A stretch of DNA of 64,000 nucleotides from Candidatus Hermodarchaeum yapensis (GCA_016840405.1 JAEOSK010000006.1:37260-101259), one strand, 5' to 3'; shown: positions 17,587 through 52,625, numbered from the stretch's first letter. Translations and numbers: made by a program. Notes: generated by a model not told the origin, from the sequence alone.

Positions 17587-18072
17587 TTAATAAGCTGCCG
17601 AGGGTACGGTCCCAGCGGAGGTTTCTTTTAAAACCCGACCTTGTTGATTCTGGAGAGCAACTCGAATCACACTTACTGCATTTGCACCCCAGACAGTTCG
17701 TTTGATATCTCGCTCCAGCATTTTCACTGCAGCACCATTGGTTAGCTCCTGAAACGCCGTTGGACCCATGTGGAGTAATAGATGAAGAACTGTACCTGAT
17801 TCGTGGAACAAGGGATCAGGGGGGAGGTCAATTTCAGGGGTTTCAATGGATGAGGCAATGGTTGATGGTTTCCAATGGAAATAGCGTTTACGGGCTTCTC
17901 TTCGAATATCCACGAGCCCTGCGCAACATAACACTTCAATGACATCGTAAAGACGTCGTTTTTCTTTAAGTGGCAATCCTAGATGCATGAGGAGTGTATT
18001 GGCCGTGTATTCCTGCTGAGGATGTTCCCGCAAAAAACTGATTACATGGCTAGCAATTTCGCCTAATTTCAT
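17587..18072 (-). CDS. E2F/DP-like winged-helix DNA-binding protein
   Basis: KRRLYDVIEVL..AGLV....KRYFHWK resembles the E2F/DP RRxYD..NVL..GL...W signature; ATG 18072 after GAGGA. Confidence 0.7.
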   Translation of the reverse strand: MKLGEIASHVISFLREHPQQEYTANTLLMHLGLPLKEKRRLYDVIEVLCCAGLVDIRREARKRYFHWKPSTIASSIETPEIDLPPDPLFHESGTVLHLLLHMGPTAFQELTNGAAVKMLERDIKRTVWGANAVSVIRVALQNQQGRVLKETSAGTVPSAAY

Positions 18073-18352
18073 GGTGATATCCTCGCCCAGTCCAAAGAAT
18101 TTCAAGGGTTCGTGAGGGCCCACTCAGAGGAAGATGATAAGCCAACCTCATCACCTTTGGACCCAGTACTCACTTCCCTCGAAATCTAAGTGATGTTCCT
18201 ATCTCTTCTCCCTTCTTGTTAAAAAGTGCTGGTAATACGTTTCGTGCCATTCGTCCAAATTGCAGTAACATTAGGAGTTCATTATAAATCAGGAAAAGGA
18301 CAGAGCTTAAATCAGTAAATTCCCAGCTATTGGGTGGGGTTCTTCAGTCGGA

Positions 18353-19573
18353 ATGAGGAAATATCGTTTGTGGCAAATAGCAGTGTTTCTCCTCTTGATT
18401 TTCCTCGTAGCACTGCCTCCCCACCGAGTTAATGCCTTTCAATATTTTCATTATTGGCGAGTAACCTTTTCTGGCTCGATAGAAGTCCATGGGAATGAAT
18501 CGCTCCCAATTTCTTCTTACTGGAATTATATTGGAAATCGATCATGGCAAACCTGCGAACAACTTTCTTTCAATATAGTTCATAACTCTGAAACTATCGT
18601 GCCCTCAGAGCTTGGCGAAGATATCGATGGCAACCCTAGGCTTAGTTTGGACATTGGACCTCTTTTAGAGCCAAATGACACCCTGCAATGGGAGGAGGAA
18701 TGGCTATTTACTGTCTCAGATAGGCGACCTAGTCTCCCTCAAATTAGTATCGAACAGTCAGGGACCCTTGAAGAAGTTGAATCTCTATTAGGAACAGAAG
18801 ATTACCTGCGTTATACTTCTGGGACAATGTTATGGAAGACTTGGAACCAGTCCTTGCTCGATCTTGCACAAGTTATCCAAGAGGGAATTCCAGAAGAGTC
18901 TCAAAATAATATTCTCGCCTTGGTTCATGCGTCGATTGCGTGGATTCAAGCAAATATCACAAGATCGACTGGGATAACTGAACCCCAATATCCTGAGGAG
19001 ACCGTAGATAGTCAAATGGGCGATTGTGACGATCAGTCTAATTTGCTTATTACACTTCTGCGGATTCACAATATACCCTGCTATCTCTTGACTGGTCACT
19101 GGTTTCAGAATGCTGCCCGAACGCATGGATATCTTTGGGGGTCCGTCGAAGAAGATGCCTATCTTTATGTTGATTGGCAGAATTCAAATGGTCATGGTTG
19201 GGCAATGGTTTATGTTCCACCCTGGGGATGGCTTCCGTTTGATTTAATTGCAGCCGGACCAGGGAGTGACCCGATTGATACATACTACAATTCACTGTAT
19301 GCTACTGGAGGACCATTTGTAACCTTATGGCAAATTTTAGCCAGCGATTATATTGCCGAACGGCGAACAGAAAAAGTTGAACTCTTTGCTCATCAACTCC
19401 ATCGAGTGGAAGAAGAAGTATGGCATAGCTTTGGCTCACTGCCAATTATTGACAATCAGTACCTAACAACAAATGTTGCCACAATACTTGCCCTCACTAC
19501 TACTCTAATATTATTAACCAGCCTTGTTGTAGTTGCGTATCGACGCCAACCGGAGGAGGACCCGGAACAGTGA
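18353..19573 (+). CDS. Secreted transglutaminase-like domain protein with C-terminal TM
   Basis: Signal peptide; GDCDD, HGWAMVYVP.WGW.PFD (Cys-His-Asp triad). Confidence 0.85.
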   Translation: MRKYRLWQIAVFLLLIFLVALPPHRVNAFQYFHYWRVTFSGSIEVHGNESLPISSYWNYIGNRSWQTCEQLSFNIVHNSETIVPSELGEDIDGNPRLSLDIGPLLEPNDTLQWEEEWLFTVSDRRPSLPQISIEQSGTLEEVESLLGTEDYLRYTSGTMLWKTWNQSLLDLAQVIQEGIPEESQNNILALVHASIAWIQANITRSTGITEPQYPEETVDSQMGDCDDQSNLLITLLRIHNIPCYLLTGHWFQNAARTHGYLWGSVEEDAYLYVDWQNSNGHGWAMVYVPPWGWLPFDLIAAGPGSDPIDTYYNSLYATGGPFVTLWQILASDYIAERRTEKVELFAHQLHRVEEEVWHSFGSLPIIDNQYLTTNVATILALTTTLILLTSLVVVAYRRQPEEDPEQ

Positions 19574-21339
19574 CCCCACCGGTAATGCCGAGTAAGCTGT
19601 ATTCAGAGTACGTATTCGATGGTCATGAGGTTGCCCCCCGATTTTGGGGACCAATCCCTCTTAATATGAAGGAAGCCGTGACCATCAGTCGTCCTCTAAT
19701 CAAAGGATATCGCACCAATCAACAACCCCTCTTTTCCCCAGAGCGATTTAGCCGATTTTGTGATGCATTACGAAATATTCATCGAGAATATCAAGGACTA
19801 ACTCCGAAGGTGAAGAAGAACTTAGACCTCCTAGAAGAACAGATAGCAGTTGTAGAGGCAGGACACCAACCAGCTTTGTTTGGTGGCCCCGGCTTTGTAA
19901 TTAATAAACTCACCACCATTGCCCGACTCGCAACTTTACAGAACACCGCTCCCATCATGTTTGTGGGCGACCACGACCATGAACAAAAGGAATTAACCGT
20001 AATTCATTTGCCTAGCCCAGGACCCCGAGGAATCACATTCTCGATGCCTGTCCCCCGTGAATACAAACAATCACCTATGCATGTGTTACCACTCCCCACA
20101 CAAACCTGGTTTAGCCAAGCACTAACGAAGATTTCGTCAACCTATCATGAACTAATTGCAGGAATGCCCAAGAAACAAAAAAGCCAATACGAGAATCGAA
20201 TCCAGACGCTTACCAGCATCCTTGAATCAACATTCACCCAGGCAAGCACTATTTCGGAGTGGAGTATACTCCTATGGATGCAGATCGTTAATCTCTCGCA
20301 GGATAGTGGAATCTTATTCCAAATTTTTTCGAATTCGAGCATACGCCAACTCATGCTCCCAGCTTTTGAGTATCTATTGAAATCCCAAACCCGCTCTCGC
20401 CTCATCCAAGCCCTAAATCATAGTGGAAGCCAACTCAAAGAATTTGGCTATACTCCAGGCATTGGTGTTCGCGCTGAAGATTACGTACCCTTTCATCTTG
20501 AATGTCCAACAAAGGGCTGCCACCGAACCCGTTTGGATCCTACTCTCACTCACCCATCGACTAACAGCAAGGTTGAGATAAGCACCCGTTGTCCTAAATG
20601 TAGAACCGAGCATTCAATCCTGATAAAAGAAAAATCCCCGGACCTCAGCCCTTGGGCTGACTTTCTTTCACCCCGAGTTGATACACGTGCGTTTCTCGTA
20701 CAAAGCTATACACCCGTGATTCTACATGTGGGAGGCGCTGGCGAAACGGATTATCACGCCCAAGTGTCCCCCGCACTCGAAGCAATTCAAAGCATATCTC
20801 CAATCTTCTTTCGATATAATCGTCTTTATTATGGAAATCCTTGGACTCGACGCCAAGCACAGAAACTCTCGAGTGAAAACCTCAATTCACTTCAACCGAG
20901 TGAACTTCATTTCCATACCTCTGCAATAACAACTGGATATAATGAAGACAATCCCGGAGTAACTCGTTCTCTCTTTGCAGCAAGTGGAGAATATATTCTA
21001 GAAACCGCAGCACAACTCATCTCAGATGAATCCCGACTTGAGAGGGAACGAATGGATACAATCATACAACAACGTGAAGCTACAGACCCAACATCCAAAG
21101 AAGAGCTGCAATCAAAGGTAGGTGTTCTAACACGTAGACGCCAACTAGTCCAAACCTATCTTTCACAAATGTTCGGTCGATATTCTCCCGAACGATTGGG
21201 ACAAGAATCAAGTTTTGTATGGATAGACAGCGCCATTTCCCTTGGTCCCAATGAACTCTTCAATCGTCTTTCAGCGCATTATCAGCCGCTGACACCACCG
21301 GCTGCCACACACTATCTCTTTGATGAACCTAATGAATAG
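19570..21339 (+). CDS. bshC: Bacillithiol synthase BshC-like with Cys4 insertion
   Basis: AGHQPALFGGP..VINK, GDHD..E, SP, GG.GE..Y.AQ; clustered with bshA/bshB. Confidence 0.72.
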   Translation: MTPPVMPSKLYSEYVFDGHEVAPRFWGPIPLNMKEAVTISRPLIKGYRTNQQPLFSPERFSRFCDALRNIHREYQGLTPKVKKNLDLLEEQIAVVEAGHQPALFGGPGFVINKLTTIARLATLQNTAPIMFVGDHDHEQKELTVIHLPSPGPRGITFSMPVPREYKQSPMHVLPLPTQTWFSQALTKISSTYHELIAGMPKKQKSQYENRIQTLTSILESTFTQASTISEWSILLWMQIVNLSQDSGILFQIFSNSSIRQLMLPAFEYLLKSQTRSRLIQALNHSGSQLKEFGYTPGIGVRAEDYVPFHLECPTKGCHRTRLDPTLTHPSTNSKVEISTRCPKCRTEHSILIKEKSPDLSPWADFLSPRVDTRAFLVQSYTPVILHVGGAGETDYHAQVSPALEAIQSISPIFFRYNRLYYGNPWTRRQAQKLSSENLNSLQPSELHFHTSAITTGYNEDNPGVTRSLFAASGEYILETAAQLISDESRLERERMDTIIQQREATDPTSKEELQSKVGVLTRRRQLVQTYLSQMFGRYSPERLGQESSFVWIDSAISLGPNELFNRLSAHYQPLTPPAATHYLFDEPNE

Positions 21340-21393
21340 TAGGACATTGAAAGTATATTTTTACTAGACAAGAACATGGAGTGCCGAACAACC

Positions 21394-21906
21394 ATGAATT
21401 TGCTTGATATCATTAAAGGTCGACGTAGCATTCGCAAGTACCAATCCCGGGAAGTAGAACAAGAGAAGATTGAAAAAATTCTCGAAGCTGCACAATGGGC
21501 ACCTTCAGCGTCGAACCGCCAACCCTGGCATTTTATTGTAATTCGGGACCCTGAGACACGCAAGAAGCTCGGTGCTATTCATTCACATGGCAGATTCATG
21601 AAAGAATCTCCAGTGGTAATTGCCGTGCTTGGAGACCCTGAAGCTCACGAAAAATATTTTCTATGCGACCCTCATCAAGCGATCCAGAATCTCATGCTTA
21701 TGGCACATTGGCTTGAATTAGGAACTTGCTGGATGGGTGTTCGGGGAACTTCATTTGAACCAAAAATGAAAACACTCCTAGGTGTCCCAGATTCACTCCA
21801 CCTAATTTGTACGATTTCTCTTGGATATCCGAATGAGGAACGAACGAAAACACGCAAAGCATTATCAGAGATTGTATCCTGGGAACGCTACGGACAAAGA
21901 AAATGA
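21394..21906 (+). CDS. Nitroreductase family protein
   Basis: RRSIRKY, WAPSASNRQPWHF, LGTCW, LGYP. Confidence 0.92.
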   Translation: MNLLDIIKGRRSIRKYQSREVEQEKIEKILEAAQWAPSASNRQPWHFIVIRDPETRKKLGAIHSHGRFMKESPVVIAVLGDPEAHEKYFLCDPHQAIQNLMLMAHWLELGTCWMGVRGTSFEPKMKTLLGVPDSLHLICTISLGYPNEERTKTRKALSEIVSWERYGQRK

Positions 21907-21915
21907 ATTGTTAGT

Positions 21916-23022
21916 CTAGGTTTGAAGCACTTTTTTGTAGATAGCTTCGTATTGTGGCACAACTTTGTCAACCGTATGGCGTTCAATAATGGTTTGACGG
22001 GCCTTCGTCCCAAGGTTGTTTGCTAGCGTTTGATCTGTGAGTATCGCATACAATTTGTCTGCCAACGCATCGATATCCCCAAAGGGCACCAGAAGCCCAT
22101 TTTCCCCATTATCAATTATTTCTGGAATGCCACCCACTGCTGTTGAAACGACGGGTAATCCAGCACTCATTGCTTCTAAGAGTGATAATGGGGCGCCTTC
22201 GAGTTCGGAGGTTAAGGCAAAAGCGTAGCCACAGCGTAGATATTGATAGATGTCCCGTTTAAAACCGGGACATTTGACCCTGTCATTCAATTCGAACTCG
22301 CGAATCAAGCGGTCGACCTCTGGTCGTGTTGGACCATCACCAAGCAGAAGTAATTCGACATCATCCAGCTTATCAACAATCTGTGCAAATGCGGTTACTA
22401 AGTCTTGAACGCGCTTAACGGGACGAAAATTGGACACATGTATCACTTGGCGTTTTCCATCATTTGTGGTAAATTCACACGCGTTTGGTTTGTATAATTC
22501 AGTGTCAGTAAAATTCGTGATTGGTTCAACCACACATCGTATTCCCAAAGTTTGTTCAGCAGTTTGACAGATATGTTTAGTAACGCATGTAACTGCATTG
22601 GCACTCTCCACTGAATAGCGCGTAGCAAGTTGATAGGAAGGGTCTGCGCCCAGAGTATGCACATCAGAACCATGTAATGTTACAACATAGGGAATGCCCG
22701 TCATCTGCTGAGCCATATTAGCAGATACGGCATGCGGGATAGCATAGTGAACATGTAACAGGTCCAATTCATATTTTTGTGCGACTTGAACCATTCGAGA
22801 TGCAAGAGCAACAGTGTAAGGAGGATATCGAAAGAGGGGGTATTCTAGCACATCAACGAGATTTACAGTGACGTTCTCGTATTGACCTTCTTGGAGCTCG
22901 AATGGCACTTCGTAAGTGATAAAGTGCACTTCATGTCCTCGTTTACCAAGTTCGACCCCTAACCTTGTGGCCAGAAGTCCAGAACCTCCGACTCCAGGGT
23001 AACATGTAATTCCAATTCGCAT
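21916..23022 (-). CDS. bshA: N-acetyl-alpha-D-glucosaminyl L-malate synthase (GT4)
   Basis: MRIGITCYP.VGGSG, YPLFRYPPY, LLHVHYAIPHA, TLHGSD, HVSNFRPVKR. Confidence 0.92.
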   Translation of the reverse strand: MRIGITCYPGVGGSGLLATRLGVELGKRGHEVHFITYEVPFELQEGQYENVTVNLVDVLEYPLFRYPPYTVALASRMVQVAQKYELDLLHVHYAIPHAVSANMAQQMTGIPYVVTLHGSDVHTLGADPSYQLATRYSVESANAVTCVTKHICQTAEQTLGIRCVVEPITNFTDTELYKPNACEFTTNDGKRQVIHVSNFRPVKRVQDLVTAFAQIVDKLDDVELLLLGDGPTRPEVDRLIREFELNDRVKCPGFKRDIYQYLRCGYAFALTSELEGAPLSLLEAMSAGLPVVSTAVGGIPEIIDNGENGLLVPFGDIDALADKLYAILTDQTLANNLGTKARQTIIERHTVDKVVPQYEAIYKKVLQT

Positions 23023-23137
23023 TGTCTGTCGAAAGGCATCCTGTCTTTCCTACCCTTATGTGTTGCTCTATACGTCTGTTAACACTCCACCCTAAGACGA
23101 GGAAACCTTTAGGGAGAGAAACAGCGTAATATTCAGT

Positions 23138-23815
23138 ATGTCCGATTCCTCGTCTCACCACCTTCTAGTCGTGGCAGCCCACCCCGATGATGAAACATTC
23201 GGATGCGGAGGCACCATTGCCCTTGAAAGGGCAAACGGAAACCCAGTTACAGTGTGCTGTCTTACAGGCACCGTCGCCCGACACCGAGAATTAGAAGCTG
23301 CCTGCGAAACGCTAGGTGCAAAAGTTATTGCACTGAAAGCCAAAGATATGACGCTAACAATTTCGGATGTAACTAAAACCCTCATTCCGATTATTCATGA
23401 GAAACGTCCAGAAGTCATCATTTCCCACAGTGCCGAGGATTACCATCCAGATCATCGCATCGTCCATGAAGCAGTTCTCCGTGCAGCAGAATGGGCAGGT
23501 CATTCGACACAATATAAGAGTAAAGCTTGGCGCCCGAAGCGCCTTCTCTTCATGGAAATCAACAACCTTCTCTCCATGCCTACGGTGCTAGTCGATATTT
23601 CTGATTATATTGAGCTGAAAACTGATGCGATTTATGAATATGCGAGTCAAATGAAAAAAACCGAGGAATACTATCTCTTCTTCAATTTACAGAAAGGACG
23701 ATTACGGGGTCTGCAAGCAGGAACTGAATATGCTGAAGCCTTCCAAGAAATCCTCATGCCCATTCATGGACCTTTCTATTCCCCGACACCAACTGTCAAA
23801 ACAATATTTTCCTAA
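23138..23815 (+). CDS. bshB1: PIG-L family deacetylase, BshB1-like
   Basis: AHPDDE..CGG, HPDH, VDIS, Y.SQ, YAEAF; divergent from bshA. Confidence 0.72.
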   Translation: MSDSSSHHLLVVAAHPDDETFGCGGTIALERANGNPVTVCCLTGTVARHRELEAACETLGAKVIALKAKDMTLTISDVTKTLIPIIHEKRPEVIISHSAEDYHPDHRIVHEAVLRAAEWAGHSTQYKSKAWRPKRLLFMEINNLLSMPTVLVDISDYIELKTDAIYEYASQMKKTEEYYLFFNLQKGRLRGLQAGTEYAEAFQEILMPIHGPFYSPTPTVKTIFS

Positions 23816-23837: not shown

Positions 23838-24872
23838 TTAGTCAAGAGGCGGCGGAATTTCAATCCGAGACCCCCGAATTTTTTTTACCCAGTCCTCAAA
23901 CGCTGGACCCGTTGGCTTCTGTTGATAGAGATCTGCCCGATTTGCTTCAAGGAGATTTTCGGATAAACCTAACACCTCAGCTATTGTAAGAATCTGATGC
24001 CCCCGATTACTCGCTAACCTCTGAATAGGATTCAACCAATTCAACCAGTTTTGATCTCGAAGCAAATGATGGTCAACAACGATCATAGGGATCTTGTCAG
24101 CAAGCAGCCCTAAGTTTTCAGTAGCGTTTACTAAAATTTCAGGCCTGACCTTCTCCGGTGAAAGATATGTGGGAGGACCCGCCAGAACCAGCACATCGGG
24201 GTTTTGCCCTATAATCCATTCTGCGGTGGATTTCACCATTGGACCTTGGACATCTGAAGCATGAACCAGCGTAAAATCTCCACATCGGATGGTCGTCATA
24301 ATTACCCATCCGAGTTTCGTTCTATCTTCACCATGAGGAACAGCAGGCGAAAACCGAATCACCGTTTGTCCAATCTTTAAGGCTCTACCATCAGCGTACA
24401 CAACTTCTTCAGCGACTTTCCTGACACTCCTAACGAAATTATATCCTCGCCGTTGTTGAGAGTAATTAATGTGGAGACGAATATCCTTACAATAAATTCG
24501 ATGGTCTTGATACAGGCTAGAAGCCTCGTCACGTGACGACCAGAAATAGGCGAAATTTTGGAAGAAAGGCATGAAATGATCATGGTGAAAATGAGAAACC
24601 ACAATCAAATCTGTTGATTGAGCCACTGAATCAATTTTCTTCCTAATAGATTTCAGTAACCGATATTCCTCAGGATGAGGGTGATAACTATCTCGAAACC
24701 CAAGAGCTGCACTAGGATCGATGAGTATGGATGTATCATCGGTTTGAACATGAACCGCTAGACTTCGAACACCAAGACTTTCTGCTGCTAATGGCGTAAT
24801 CACCATATCCTTACTAAGTTGGATATTTCCAGAGGTAACTGATGGTGATTCGCCCATTGTAACTGACTCCAA
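23838..24872 (-). CDS. Archaeal MBL-fold hydrolase (UPF0282-like)
   Basis: AAESLGVRS, SHFHHDH, PHG, SDVQG, GPPTYL, DHHLLRD. Confidence 0.85.
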   Translation of the reverse strand: MESVTMGESPSVTSGNIQLSKDMVITPLAAESLGVRSLAVHVQTDDTSILIDPSAALGFRDSYHPHPEEYRLLKSIRKKIDSVAQSTDLIVVSHFHHDHFMPFFQNFAYFWSSRDEASSLYQDHRIYCKDIRLHINYSQQRRGYNFVRSVRKVAEEVVYADGRALKIGQTVIRFSPAVPHGEDRTKLGWVIMTTIRCGDFTLVHASDVQGPMVKSTAEWIIGQNPDVLVLAGPPTYLSPEKVRPEILVNATENLGLLADKIPMIVVDHHLLRDQNWLNWLNPIQRLASNRGHQILTIAEVLGLSENLLEANRADLYQQKPTGPAFEDWVKKIRGSRIEIPPPLD

Positions 24873-25005: not shown

Positions 25006-26208
25006 TTAGTCTATACGTTTTACTAATTCGTCAGGATTTGGTAGCTTTTTAACCTGCTCAGGTTCTTTTCGGAAGCGAACACCAGATTCGGCTTCTATGC
25101 TTTCTGTGTAGAGGACTTCACCTTCTATGGTCACATCTCGTTCAATGTAAATTACACGACCATAGAGGTTTTTCACCCGAGCACGTTCTTCAACCCGAAT
25201 CGTATCACCATAAAAGGACTCCCCACGGACCCGTTCCGAAACCGTGATGTCAGGACTTTCAACAAAGCCAGACACCTCACCCCGACGCCCGATTCGAAAT
25301 TCCTTTACTGCTTTGATGCGAGTACCCTTAATCGATCCACCAATATCAATGATAGGAGATTCGATAAGATTCCCTGCTCTGAGCGATCCACCTACCTCAA
25401 TTTCCCTTGCTACGATGAGATCTGTATTCACAACAACCGATCCACCAACATCTAAATTCTCAGCTAGAACTAGTGATGCTTCAGCTTTTACGGACCCACC
25501 TACATCAACAATTCTACCCGTGGCTTTCCCCCCGAGTTTCGCTGCACCACCACAATCCAGCATTTCAAATGTCAGGTCACCTTCGCTCTTGAAAGAGCCC
25601 CCAACATCAATATTAAGTACTTTGGAGCCAGGACCAACAACCACAGCCCCACCGACATCGATGTCTCCAATCTCGACAGCCCCTTCAGCTTTGAATGCCC
25701 CGCCAACGTTTACTTTCCCAATGGTGCCTGTATTGCATTTTACGGCGCCACCAACATTAATGGTCTTTGAATCAACTTTCCCCTCGATTTTCACTGCACC
25801 ACCAACGTTAATGTCCTCAACGGTAGCATCGCCTTTGACAGATAGTGCACCTCCAATCGATACTTTTGAGGCCTGCAAATCCTTACCGACAGAAAGAGCA
25901 GCCCCAACATCAAATTTATTCGCGGTCGCCGAACCCTCAATTTCAAGCTTCCCATTTTTGACACGAACCGACCGGGTGACGACTAGATCCCCGTGGATTT
26001 CTGTGGTGTTGCGGCCATCAATTTCAAGATACTCAGCTTTCAAGGATCCCTCAATCACAGTATCTTCGCGAATAAACAGTTCACCATCGATGACGATTTC
26101 CTTCCCTTTTTCTGGGACGATCGTTCGACAGTTCTCAACTTTCACATCACCTTTGATGTGACCCAATTTGAGTTCATGTTCATTTTTGAACTGTAGTTTT
26201 TCACCCAT
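25006..26208 (-). CDS. Bactofilin-like / polymer-forming cytoskeletal beta-helix repeat protein
   Basis: Roughly a dozen 14-18-aa repeats with VGG(A/S) turns; Val/Ile/Gly rich. Confidence 0.7.
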   Translation of the reverse strand: MGEKLQFKNEHELKLGHIKGDVKVENCRTIVPEKGKEIVIDGELFIREDTVIEGSLKAEYLEIDGRNTTEIHGDLVVTRSVRVKNGKLEIEGSATANKFDVGAALSVGKDLQASKVSIGGALSVKGDATVEDINVGGAVKIEGKVDSKTINVGGAVKCNTGTIGKVNVGGAFKAEGAVEIGDIDVGGAVVVGPGSKVLNIDVGGSFKSEGDLTFEMLDCGGAAKLGGKATGRIVDVGGSVKAEASLVLAENLDVGGSVVVNTDLIVAREIEVGGSLRAGNLIESPIIDIGGSIKGTRIKAVKEFRIGRRGEVSGFVESPDITVSERVRGESFYGDTIRVEERARVKNLYGRVIYIERDVTIEGEVLYTESIEAESGVRFRKEPEQVKKLPNPDELVKRID

Positions 26209-26370
26209 TTTACATGTCTCCAGACATTTCGCTAATGAAACCAAGGTATTAGTTATTTAAAAGGCGGACTCACAATTTGGGGTCACATAATGTTACTTTA
26301 CTCACATTTTGTAAAATAGTACCAATTGAATGATTTGATAGCCTAGGAGTTCTCCCTTTACCAGCACGGT

Positions 26371-37803: not shown

Positions 37804-39477
37804 TCATTTTGGTGGAGAAGCAAGGTATTGAAGCCGCTCGAGCACCAGTTGGGGTTCTGTGAAAGCAAAAAACGCAGATATTCGGGGGCCTCGATCCCGA
37901 CCGAAAAAAGCCTGATACATAAAGCGAAAGAAAGCCTGCTGTGTGCGTTTACTCAGTGTTTGAGTTATGGTTTTTGTCACGTCAGTGATTGCTTGTTCTG
38001 TCCATTGCTGTCGGTTAAGCGTCGAGTGAAGCTGTTGATAAAGAGCGCGAAGTTCAGAGGGAATATTTCGGTTGAGATTTTTTGGAGGGGCAGAAAGTAT
38101 AACGATTCGATAAGATTCCGGAGCATAATTCCGAACCCAAGTATTTGCCTGGTTTAGGCGTTCTTTGAGATAACTCTGCTGTTCATCTGTAAGGGAAGGA
38201 GGAAGAATACCGCTGGAAGTCAGTTTCTCAATCGCGACCCTAGTATGATTCTCAGGGGGAATAACTTGCGAGAGAAGGACCGCATGAAGATAGGGGACTT
38301 GGAGAGGTGCATTATCAGAAATTGGTTCCAGATTCGCAAGTTCATAACTCCGTCGAATATCAGCGATTTCCTGTTCAGTGGCTTTGGGTGAATCGATGTT
38401 GTAATAGACGCGTTCAGCACGTTCGTATTGACCGATGTAATTGGGAACATATTCGAGCCCCAATGTGATACGTTTCATAGGCTTATTTTTCAAAAACAGG
38501 TAACGAAGGGGCTCACCAGGAGCTACAGAAAGCCACGTTTTCGGAGTAAAGCCAAGAAAGTCAGAGCTTCCCATGTCGCCACTATCGACACCATTTTCGA
38601 TAAGCCCAACCCATTCATAAGCGAAGGGAACCGGCGATTTGAAGTTAAAGAAGTTCTCCGCAAGTTCTTTGGCACTGTCCCTTGATCCACCAGGCGTCGC
38701 ATGATCTTTCCCGAAGGGCTCAAAGCCAACATTAAGCACCTTCCAGAGGGCAGCCCATTCAAGGCGCCAAGAGAGTTTACCATTCTCAATACTTGCTGTG
38801 TCCTTGTCCCCGCAGTGGTCACACTGATACTGAGCGGTGTAGGCATCAGGATCAACGGAGATCACCGTCGTCGTATCAATCCGCTGACATTGTTGACACA
38901 CAACAAGAACCGGAATCCAGTCCTTTGGGTAGGGATTTCGGGCACGATATTTGTTAATGATTGTACGTGCTTTATCACGATGTTCAATAGCGAAACGTAC
39001 TAGCTCGTGCATTTCTGGCCAGGAGTAAATTTCGTGAGTGCTAAAGATTTTAGCATCACGACTGAAATGGTCCAGATATCCGCCAAAATCTAGCCAATAG
39101 CGATTCACCCAGCTGGAAAGTTCTCCCTTAGGGTCTGGGACATCGATTAATCGTTGCCCAATGTACCCCTCCGCTTCTTTCTTCTCGCGAAATTGGGCTA
39201 ATTGTCCAGGTTTCCCTTTCCATTGATCACTGGTGTACCGAACAATGGCATGACGGGTTTGAATCCCCTTCTGTCGAAGCTGATGCATGACGGTATTCGT
39301 AAGCGTCACTTCACCCCGTAACCGCCCCACATGCTGCAAACCTGAAACAGAAAGACCACAACTACAGTTTATCTGCGTAGTGTCTTCCCCCCAGTAGCTT
39401 ACAATCTCCGCAACTAGGGCATCAATCCAATGTTGATAGGTTGTAGAAGTGGTCAATGTGTTCACCAGACAGTACAA
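37804..39477 (-). CDS. lysS: Lysine--tRNA ligase, class I
   Basis: HWID, SG..HVG..RGE, GKL.WRLEW...W, EPFGKDH...GGS, MGSS, GPR. Confidence 0.93.
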   Translation of the reverse strand: MYCLVNTLTTSTTYQHWIDALVAEIVSYWGEDTTQINCSCGLSVSGLQHVGRLRGEVTLTNTVMHQLRQKGIQTRHAIVRYTSDQWKGKPGQLAQFREKKEAEGYIGQRLIDVPDPKGELSSWVNRYWLDFGGYLDHFSRDAKIFSTHEIYSWPEMHELVRFAIEHRDKARTIINKYRARNPYPKDWIPVLVVCQQCQRIDTTTVISVDPDAYTAQYQCDHCGDKDTASIENGKLSWRLEWAALWKVLNVGFEPFGKDHATPGGSRDSAKELAENFFNFKSPVPFAYEWVGLIENGVDSGDMGSSDFLGFTPKTWLSVAPGEPLRYLFLKNKPMKRITLGLEYVPNYIGQYERAERVYYNIDSPKATEQEIADIRRSYELANLEPISDNAPLQVPYLHAVLLSQVIPPENHTRVAIEKLTSSGILPPSLTDEQQSYLKERLNQANTWVRNYAPESYRIVILSAPPKNLNRNIPSELRALYQQLHSTLNRQQWTEQAITDVTKTITQTLSKRTQQAFFRFMYQAFFGRDRGPRISAFFAFTEPQLVLERLQYLASPPK

Positions 39478-51653: not shown

Positions 51654-52625
51654 TCAATGACCATATAAGCGTTGGGCGTTCCGCCAGTAGAGGTCAGCAA
51701 GAACTCGCTTGGGAAGATTCAATCCGTTGATGAAGGTACCGCCATGGGCTTCTGTGTCGGGATCAGGAAAGGGAAGGGGAACCTTTCGGTCTTTGGTTTC
51801 CCAGAGGATACGTTGAGCCAGGAATCGACGATTGTAGGGTGAAAGTTGATTAGCATTGCTCTGCTTTAGATTCTGTTCTTCAGGAGGCTTATTGAGGGTG
51901 GCATCGGTTCCGAAGAGAATGCGTTTGGAATAGCGGATGAGGAACTGGCGTGCTTTCTTCGGGTCCTTACTGAGCTCCCGGGCCATCCATCTAGAGGAAG
52001 CGGTATCTACAACAATGTTGGGATACTGATCAAACCATTTACCGAGATGGGGGAGACGATGAATTTCGGGTTGAGCCCCAAAATGAGCGAGTTGGAAGGT
52101 TAGATCCGAGTACTTTTCGATGAGCTTCTCGAGTTGGTTTAGGTGCTCTTCTTTTGTACCATAGATTGCAGACTTTGCATAGGTTGTAGCATAGTAGGTG
52201 TCAGGGTCTGCAACATGAAATAAGAGAGGGTAACCCTCTGCTTCCAACGTTGAGAAAATGGGCGCTAACCTTGGATCCGTGATGGAAAAGGCACTGGTAA
52301 GATTTTGCATATAATTACGCCAGCCTGGAGCAACCCACATCTTTGCGAGAGTAAAGCCTTCGTCTCGCATTTTCTTGATTTCGTGAACGACACCATTGAT
52401 TCTGAAGGCTACAATATCCCGAGTGGATAGGTATTTGGCAAAAACGAATTGACCCGGTAATTGGTCTGCGATATCGCGAGTCTCTTTGAGATGAGCGATG
52501 ACCAATTGTGCTTTGATGCCAAGTTGGTTCAATTCTTCTAGCGTTTTATCGAGAAATGAGGTATTCCAGATGTGCGTGTGTGCGTCAAAAATGGGACCTA
52601 AATATTTCCACTCAAAGTCTGACAA
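51654..52625 (-). CDS. Amidohydrolase 2 family protein
   Basis: DAHTH, FHVADP, AHFG, ILFGTD, Y..NA.RL. Confidence 0.85.
   Translation of the reverse strand: MSDFEWKYLGPIFDAHTHIWNTSFLDKTLEELNQLGIKAQLVIAHLKETRDIADQLPGQFVFAKYLSTRDIVAFRINGVVHEIKKMRDEGFTLAKMWVAPGWRNYMQNLTSAFSITDPRLAPIFSTLEAEGYPLLFHVADPDTYYATTYAKSAIYGTKEEHLNQLEKLIEKYSDLTFQLAHFGAQPEIHRLPHLGKWFDQYPNIVVDTASSRWMARELSKDPKKARQFLIRYSKRILFGTDATLNKPPEEQNLKQSNANQLSPYNRRFLAQRILWETKDRKVPLPFPDPDTEAHGGTFINGLNLPKRVLADLYWRNAQRLYGH

Follow-up and report, generated by a model that had tools for sequence, protein, structure and literature searches.

The 64,000-nucleotide window analysed here, from Candidatus Hermodarchaeum yapensis, carries a gene cluster whose products probably make bacillithiol or a very close analogue in three steps. 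By their open reading frame (ORF) positions, five genes are tightly packed at 18353-23815: a transglutaminase-core gene, a BshC-like ligase gene, a nitroreductase gene, bshA and a PIG-L deacetylase gene. In the proposed route, the GT4 glycosyltransferase BshA would move N-acetylglucosamine (GlcNAc) from UDP-GlcNAc onto L-malate, the PIG-L zinc deacetylase would strip the acetyl group to give glucosaminyl-malate (GlcN-malate), and the BshC-fold ligase would attach cysteine to the free amine. The product would then be expected to act as a thiol in redox balance or detoxification. An earlier reading made from the DNA alone (the sequence-only reading) had placed a bshC-nitroreductase-bshA-bshB array at 19570-23815 in an Asgard-like archaeon and proposed that the organism makes bacillithiol or a variant of it. 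All four ORFs lie at these coordinates, and we judge the proposal to be the best reading on account of an equivalog-level BshA, a ligase with the BshC fold and the linkage of the three genes. The nearest public relatives of the window are Hermodarchaeota or Promethearchaeota contigs, which bears out the Asgard placement and makes the host a Hermodarchaeota-type Asgard archaeon. The window corresponds to contig C67 of a 2.7-Mb metagenome-assembled genome (MAG) that is 86% complete, a limit carried by every genome-wide negative reported below.

Bacillithiol has been measured in bacteria only, and the set of BshA, deacetylase and BshC-like ligase found in about 37% of 400 Asgard genomes is a testable candidate for its production elsewhere. 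The divergent ligase would also offer a second way into the long-unsolved BshC reaction. Bacillithiol genes in Asgard archaea have already been published and annotated; what the window contributes is no more than the case of Hermod and, for the nitroreductase, a negative result.

The three enzymes

The gene bshA (21916-23022, minus strand, 368 aa) had been called unmistakable, and rightly so. The protein scored 388.9 bits against the N-acetylglucosaminyl-L-malate synthase equivalog TIGR03999, 115 bits above the cut-off of 273.7, and the next family reached 147 bits. Residues 1-367 align to the solved BshA structures 2JJM/3MBO (E 1e-93), 5D00 (1e-84) and 6D9T/6N1X (8e-80). The identity to the Bacillus anthracis BshA, counted from the alignment, is about 43%, and that to a Bacillales BshA is 43%. 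A match at the equivalog level argues for a GlcNAc-malate intermediate. In a 27-sequence tree the Hermod BshA is sister to a Thor-type clade with support of 99/98; with few bacteria sampled and a midpoint root, the tree gives neither the donor nor the true root. Judged from sequence, the first step of the pathway appears secure, and the second and third appear plausible with enzymes of a divergent type.

The deacetylase gene (23138-23815, plus strand, 225 aa) encodes a PIG-L/LmbE protein with 86.9 bits on PF02585. Its best family is TIGR04001 (BshB1) at 100.1 bits, under the cut-off of 182.5, and its closest solved relatives are the BshB1 structure 6P2T (1e-14) and BC1534, 2IXD (2e-13). The catalytic apparatus is intact. 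H15, D17, D18, R48, H103, D105 and H106 correspond to H12, D14, D15, R53, H110, D112 and H113 of BC1534, whose roles are described in PMC4101496. The zinc ligands (H15, D18 and H106) and the general base (D17) are therefore all kept, as are R48 (Arg53) and H103 (His110). The motif DYH(P/D)DH is constant in the deacetylase of every Hermod locus, and in the aligned Hermod and Thor proteins an eight-residue loop before Arg53 is missing and a GPFY tail is held in common. The sequence-only reading had described a divergent PIG-L deacetylase; with a sub-threshold BshB1 match and an intact zinc site, the enzyme is best classed, from its sequence, as a divergent archaeal BshB-like subtype.

The putative cysteine-adding enzyme is the 589-aa product of the BshC-like gene (19570-21339, plus strand). 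It passed the Pfam model of the BshC N-terminal Rossmann-like domain (PF10079, 64.2 bits, the gathering score being 27) but missed TIGR03998 BshC (67.6 bits against 265.8), with only model positions 43-386 aligned. A search with the single sequence found B. subtilis BshC (4WBD) weakly (E 0.004), and a profile built from 40 relatives reached it at E 2.3e-21 in two stretches on either side of an insert. An AlphaFold model on the same 40-relative alignment had a pLDDT of 95.7 and a pTM of 0.94. Foldseek ranked 4WBD first for this model (E 9.7e-20, TM 0.67/0.73), and VIA-align superimposed 483 residues at Z 34.2 and an rmsd of 3.5, covering 4-585 of the model and 11-539 of the chain. In the model a Rossmann core and its connective peptides are joined to a C-terminal coiled coil, which falls inside the 4WBD match; long helices occupy 462-535. 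The absence of a BshC fold from the ORF at 19570 was to have counted against the pathway; the model matches 4WBD end to end, and the fold is thus present. The runner-up in VIA-align, far behind 4WBD, was a class I lysyl-tRNA synthetase (LysRS), 1IRX, with a Z of 20.3; further class I synthetases reached Z of about 11.

The motifs HQPxxxGGP, DHD and GGxGETxY are kept in the BshC-like proteins. An exhaustive search of 1.84 billion representatives returned 42 proteins at E <=1e-30; beneath these, full-length matches score about 37-55 bits, and those that were aligned bear the bacterial-type BshC motifs. Named members of the branch come from Heimdall-, Thor-, Ran-, Hod-, Prometh- and Bathyarchaeota, and several carry the NCBI name 'bacillithiol biosynthesis BshC'. 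The ligase is a divergent archaeal branch and not an orthologue of bacterial BshC.

The insert of about 45 residues that separates the two 4WBD-aligned stretches holds a zinc ribbon, encoded at 20503-20601 (plus strand), with the cysteines C312, C317, C341 and C344 (ECPTKGC...CPKC). Of these, C312, C341 and C344 do not vary among 40 sequences of the archaeal type, and the branch signature is ECPxxxC...CPxC. The Cys4 insert is missing from every canonical bacterial-type BshC representative aligned, and no cysteines occur at that place. The window encodes a class I LysRS of its own (37804-39477, minus strand; 293 bits on TIGR00467) with a CxxC...CxxC element. This Cys4 element sits, after D-W-I-P, at a place matching the BshC-like zinc ribbon, a correspondence that is weak in hhalign (E 0.0014, probability 18%). 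Zinc takes part in cysteine recognition in CysRS and MshC. It is conceivable, if rather doubtful, that the archaeal branch is the ancestral, LysRS-like form of BshC and that its metal module could help to recognise an activated cysteine donor, either Cys-tRNA or cysteine. Should this be true and the enzyme prove active alone in vitro, the unsolved BshC reaction would be revealed, and relatives of the eukaryotic ancestor would be users of a sugar-cysteine thiol. Our literature search found no paper joining BshC with zinc and LysRS.

A third BshC-related group was seen on two metagenome contigs (L030 and L031), in which the Cys4 element is kept and the GGxGE motif is degenerate. Its neighbours are GT2, PIG-L, DegT aminotransferase, ATP-grasp and luciferase-like genes, a gene company suggesting other aminoacyl-sugar pathways.

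Linkage across Asgard archaea

The BshC-like profile matched 198 of 400 Asgard genomes, spread over 44 of 85 genera, and BshA exceeded its cut-off in 146 of the 400. Nearly every genome of families f1, f6, f7, f8, f9, f31 and f32 has both an above-cut-off BshA and a BshC-like gene. Fifteen public Hermod-type contigs show one gene order, namely M28 peptidase, E2F-like winged helix, transglutaminase-like, bshC, nitroreductase (where present), bshA, bshB, MBL-fold and bactofilin. At 20 loci sampled from 11 other Asgard families, bshA adjoins the BshC-like gene in f7, f8, f9, f31 and f32. The two genes occur in two arrangements, convergent in f1, f7, f8, f9 and f32 and co-directional in f31. The recurrence of the same order in the 15 contigs and the adjacency in five more families mean that the arrangement is not due to chance. 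BshC itself was discovered by the criterion of genomic co-occurrence and linkage with bshA; the archaeal gene shows the same linkage, adjoining bshA in families f1, f7, f8, f9, f31 and f32.

Family f12 (genus g24) bears most directly on the function of the ligase. Its genomes carry a canonical BshC of 375-386 bits, over the cut-off, in an overlapping bshC-bshB-bshA operon (L033 1447-4525, L034 and L054 6230-9576, on contigs of up to 362 kb). The deacetylase of this operon retains DRHPDH, and its BshA is over the cut-off and clusters with bacterial BshA. With the f12 operon, the phylum has the pathway in a second and separate form. The archaeal ligase fills the spot that canonical BshC holds in f12, our chief reason for assigning it the same function in the window's cluster.

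The BshC-like gene also occurs without BshA, in families f10, f11, f19, f20 and f21. In f19, f20 and f21 it lies in cassettes of GT2, PIG-L, BshC-like and Amidohydro_2 genes; a short f21 contig shows the PIG-L and BshC-like genes only. Cassettes of this GT2 type (loci L045-L049 in the three families, and L032, whose deacetylase has Trp at the position of BshB Arg109) probably make another cysteine-sugar compound. The window has an ORF at 51654-52625 (minus strand), about 30 kb from the bsh genes, whose product shares 35% identity over 321 residues with the Amidohydro_2 protein of these cassettes.

A class I/II pyridoxal phosphate (PLP) aminotransferase gene, 51-79% identical across lineages, adjoins the BshC-like gene and is convergent with it in f10, f31/Thor and Hod loci (L041-L043 of f10, L050-L052 of f31, L027 and L029). 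At the f10 loci no match to the GT2, BshA or PIG-L queries was found within 8 kb of the BshC-like gene, and only the aminotransferase was found at its side.

Product, recycling and neighbouring genes

Several observations weigh against a bacillithiol product. Two of the three enzymes, the deacetylase and the ligase, fall far under their curated thresholds, and the ligase shares no more than about 14-15% identity with B. subtilis BshC. The substrate-contact residue Arg109 of BshB is Tyr102 in the window's deacetylase, and an R109K change lowers BshB activity (PMC4101496). With Tyr in place of Arg109, the aglycone pocket may differ. In other Asgard lineages a GT2 enzyme takes the place of BshA beside close relatives of the ligase, so that a link to malate is not obligatory for the branch. 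The BshC reaction has never been reconstituted in vitro, the bacterial enzyme included, and its cysteine donor is unknown (PMC5790435); the addition of cysteine by the archaeal ligase is thus something we infer twice over. The recycling enzymes of the bacterial system were also sought. The best genome match to Bdr/YpdA (TIGR04018) scored 76 bits, where the cut-off is 339.9, and belongs to a thioredoxin reductase (311 bits on TIGR01292), so that the absence noted earlier for the window holds genome-wide, and the bacilliredoxins BrxA/B and BrxC/YtxJ were not found in the genome. As for the literature, a 2020 review that counted 39 InterPro hits in archaea for BshA and as many for BshC, most of them Asgard, and only two YpdA homologues suggested that archaea may make bacillithiol, none having been detected in them (PMC7278568). 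In a 2025 BLAST survey of RefSeq at 1e-20, the complete pathway turned up in no archaeon (PMC12719100); that threshold and that database may, in our reading, miss these MAGs and this ligase branch.

The cluster could instead make a related compound other than bacillithiol, with a different aglycone or with an amino acid other than cysteine attached by the LysRS-like ligase. We regard this as unlikely, while giving it real weight as the main alternative. It would fit the Tyr at the Arg109 position in a distinct deacetylase subtype whose loop before Arg53 is shortened and which has a GPFY tail, and a ligase that forms a separate zinc-ribbon branch with class I LysRS as its second-best structure; moreover, the sister proteins in the GT2 and PIG-L cassettes must use another first step. 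The BshA, however, is of equivalog level, with the GlcNAc-malate intermediate that this implies, and the genus with canonical BshC pairs it likewise with an above-cut-off BshA. At one Heimdall locus the BshC-like gene has cysS right upstream of it, which hints weakly at cysteine as the amino acid. The product that we favour thus remains bacillithiol or a very close analogue.

A second alternative is that the genes serve a glycoconjugate or cell-envelope pathway, in which a surface or lipid-linked sugar is modified together with a secreted transglutaminase-like protein. Pairs of a glycosyltransferase and a PIG-L protein do occur in GPI-like and polysaccharide pathways (family reviewed in PMC4101496), and the transglutaminase-core gene (18353-19573, plus strand, 406 aa; PF01841, E 6.8e-12) overlaps the start of bshC with its stop (GTGA) and is kept there within the Hermod lineages. 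However, the 388.9 bits of BshA compare with <=147 for any polysaccharide GT4 family, the three enzymes have no match to a membrane or secretion family and no obvious signal or membrane stretch in the translations inspected, and bshC loci outside this family lack the transglutaminase-like gene; an envelope role is therefore very improbable.

The transglutaminase-like protein has hydrophobic ends, a signal-like N-terminal segment and a C-terminal membrane segment, and is thus probably extracytoplasmic. Its gene lies upstream of bshC in all Hermod-type loci whose contig is long enough, and no such gene was found beside bshC in the Thor, Heimdall and Hod loci or in 20 loci of other families. With these ends and this confinement to Hermod loci, it was rejected as part of the pathway core; it is probably a Hermod-specific neighbour, with co-transcription possible.

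The nitroreductase gene (21376-21906, plus strand, 176 aa) encodes a protein of the small FMN family, with 115.8 bits on PF00881 (gathering threshold 23.5, E 3e-33), no specific NCBIfam equivalog reached and, as its best solved relative, a generic 168-aa 'putative NADH oxidase' (3E10, E 8e-30). The sequence-only reading had taken it for a candidate non-orthologous disulfide reductase or partner of the pathway, which its distribution does not bear out. An orthologue is present in 10 of 19 family genomes, all of genus g1 and always at the spot between bshC and bshA, and the gene is missing from 6 of the 15 public Hermod-type loci. Neither the 20 bshC loci sampled from 11 other Asgard families nor the Thor, Heimdall and Hod loci have the gene. 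In six genomes (G093, G095, G101, G105, G107 and G108) bshA and bshC are adjacent and no orthologue was found anywhere at E 1e-35. The host genome has about 10 paralogues, and the protein has no CxxC motif or paired cysteines, with only Cys145 aligning to a Cys of its closest solved relative. The 36-nt spacer between bshC and the nitroreductase gene contains a TATA-like TATATTTTTA, which suggests separate transcription, and the gene may have its own promoter.

That the nitroreductase acts as the lacking bacillithiol-disulfide reductase, or as a partner that the pathway cannot do without, is thus the least probable of the alternatives and close to negligible, even though its gene sits on the strand of bshC, flanked by bshC and bshA, in a genome in which no Bdr/YpdA was found, S. 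aureus NfrA reportedly has weak disulfide-reductase activity and nfrA and the bsh genes are both in the Spx regulon of Bacillus. As a core pathway partner it was ruled out on distribution, and it is best read as a recent, lineage-specific insertion and at most a stress-defence neighbour.

Disulfide recycling, if there is any, more likely falls to a flavoprotein encoded elsewhere, of the CoADR/Nox type or the thioredoxin-reductase type. The genome has, as a more conventional reductase candidate, a CoADR/Nox-type flavoprotein with a single-Cys SRCGLPY motif (G000:C57:21244-22560; 310 bits against a cut-off of 579). It also has two proteins of the DinB family, of which one has some match to the mycothiol-S-transferase model as well. 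No GCS2-type glutamate-cysteine (gamma-glutamylcysteine) ligase was found in the genome. A second LmbE/PIG-L paralogue (G000:C58:69504-71682; L077 3505-5683) scores 108 bits on BshB1, has the motif DPHPDH and overlaps with its start the end of an MFS multidrug-type efflux gene; by analogy, the two may form a pair of thiol-conjugate amidase and exporter. The CoADR-like, DinB and second LmbE and MFS genes are hints, and not evidence, of thiol use.

A supply of cysteine from a dedicated second CysRS was also considered. The genome has two full-length cysS genes (G000:C55:10630-12072 and G000:C67:3780-5204), scoring 564 and 470 bits and both over the cut-off, the second of them on the contig of bshC, about 52 kb away from it. 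At least two cysS copies occur in 15 of 19 Hermod-family genomes, and the sampled f7, f8, f9, f31 and f32 genomes have one copy each. Among 62 Asgard genomes, cysS duplicates occur with and without a BshC-like gene, and in view of this missing link a dedicated second CysRS was rejected as a general rule.

The divergent genes bshA and bshB are separated by 115 nt (23023-23137). An alignment of the window with 14 related loci shows two conserved blocks in this spacer, CCCTTATGTGTT near bshA and GAAACCTTTTGG about 30 nt ahead of the bshB ATG, and they are probably the two promoters. Other genes of the Hermod block flank the cluster. Two genes upstream of bshC, at 17587-18123 (minus strand), a small E2F/DP winged-helix protein is encoded (PF02319, 33.2 bits against 25.7), as in all Hermod-type loci reaching that far. 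An MBL-fold gene (23838-24872, minus strand) is convergent with bshB and kept there in Hermod loci. Its product was considered as a glyoxalase-II-type bacillithiol enzyme; it gave 238 bits on PRK04286 'hypothetical protein' models, under their cut-off, and weak matches to Lactamase_B_2/3. A 412-aa bactofilin-repeat protein (25006-26244, minus strand; PF04519 in two stretches), far longer than usual bactofilins, belongs to the same synteny block.

Comparison with known systems

The closest known system is the bacterial bacillithiol pathway of B. subtilis and B. anthracis and of S. aureus (5D00, 2JJM/3MBO, 6D9T, 2IXD, 6P2T and 4WBD), with which the window shares the three enzyme types and their clustering. 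As in bacterial BshB, the zinc site, the general base, Arg53 and His110 are all present in the deacetylase, and like 4WBD the ligase has the overall fold, the dimerising coiled coil and the motifs GxQ..GP, DHD and GxGE..Y. The differences lie in the Tyr for Arg109 and the 100 bits against 182.5 of the deacetylase, and in the low identity, the Cys4 insert and the 67.6 bits against 265.8 of the ligase. In addition, Bdr/YpdA, BrxA/B and BrxC were not detected in the window's genome, and the host is an anaerobic sediment archaeon.

The mycothiol pathway follows the same logic, in that the GT4 enzyme MshA, the LmbE deacetylase MshB and the cysteine ligase MshC, of class I synthetase ancestry, act in turn. 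The MshA and MshB models, however, score only 57 and 46 bits here and MshC gave no hit; MshC is a CysRS paralogue, whereas the host's two CysRS-like genes both score as true cysS.

Class I LysRS (P. horikoshii 1IRX and the protein encoded in the window) resembles the ligase in fold, as the second-best match over 297 residues, and in having a Cys4 element after a D-(Y/W)-(V/I)-P motif at the corresponding place. In contrast, the BshC-like model has a coiled coil and no counterpart of the anticodon-binding domain, and the sequence similarity is marginal. The Asgard cassettes of GT2, PIG-L, BshC-like and amidohydrolase genes (Loki-type) pair the same archaeal zinc-ribbon BshC branch with a PIG-L protein. 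They differ in having GT2 as the first enzyme, Trp at the Arg109 position of the deacetylase and an attached Amidohydro_2 gene, whereas the window has a true BshA.

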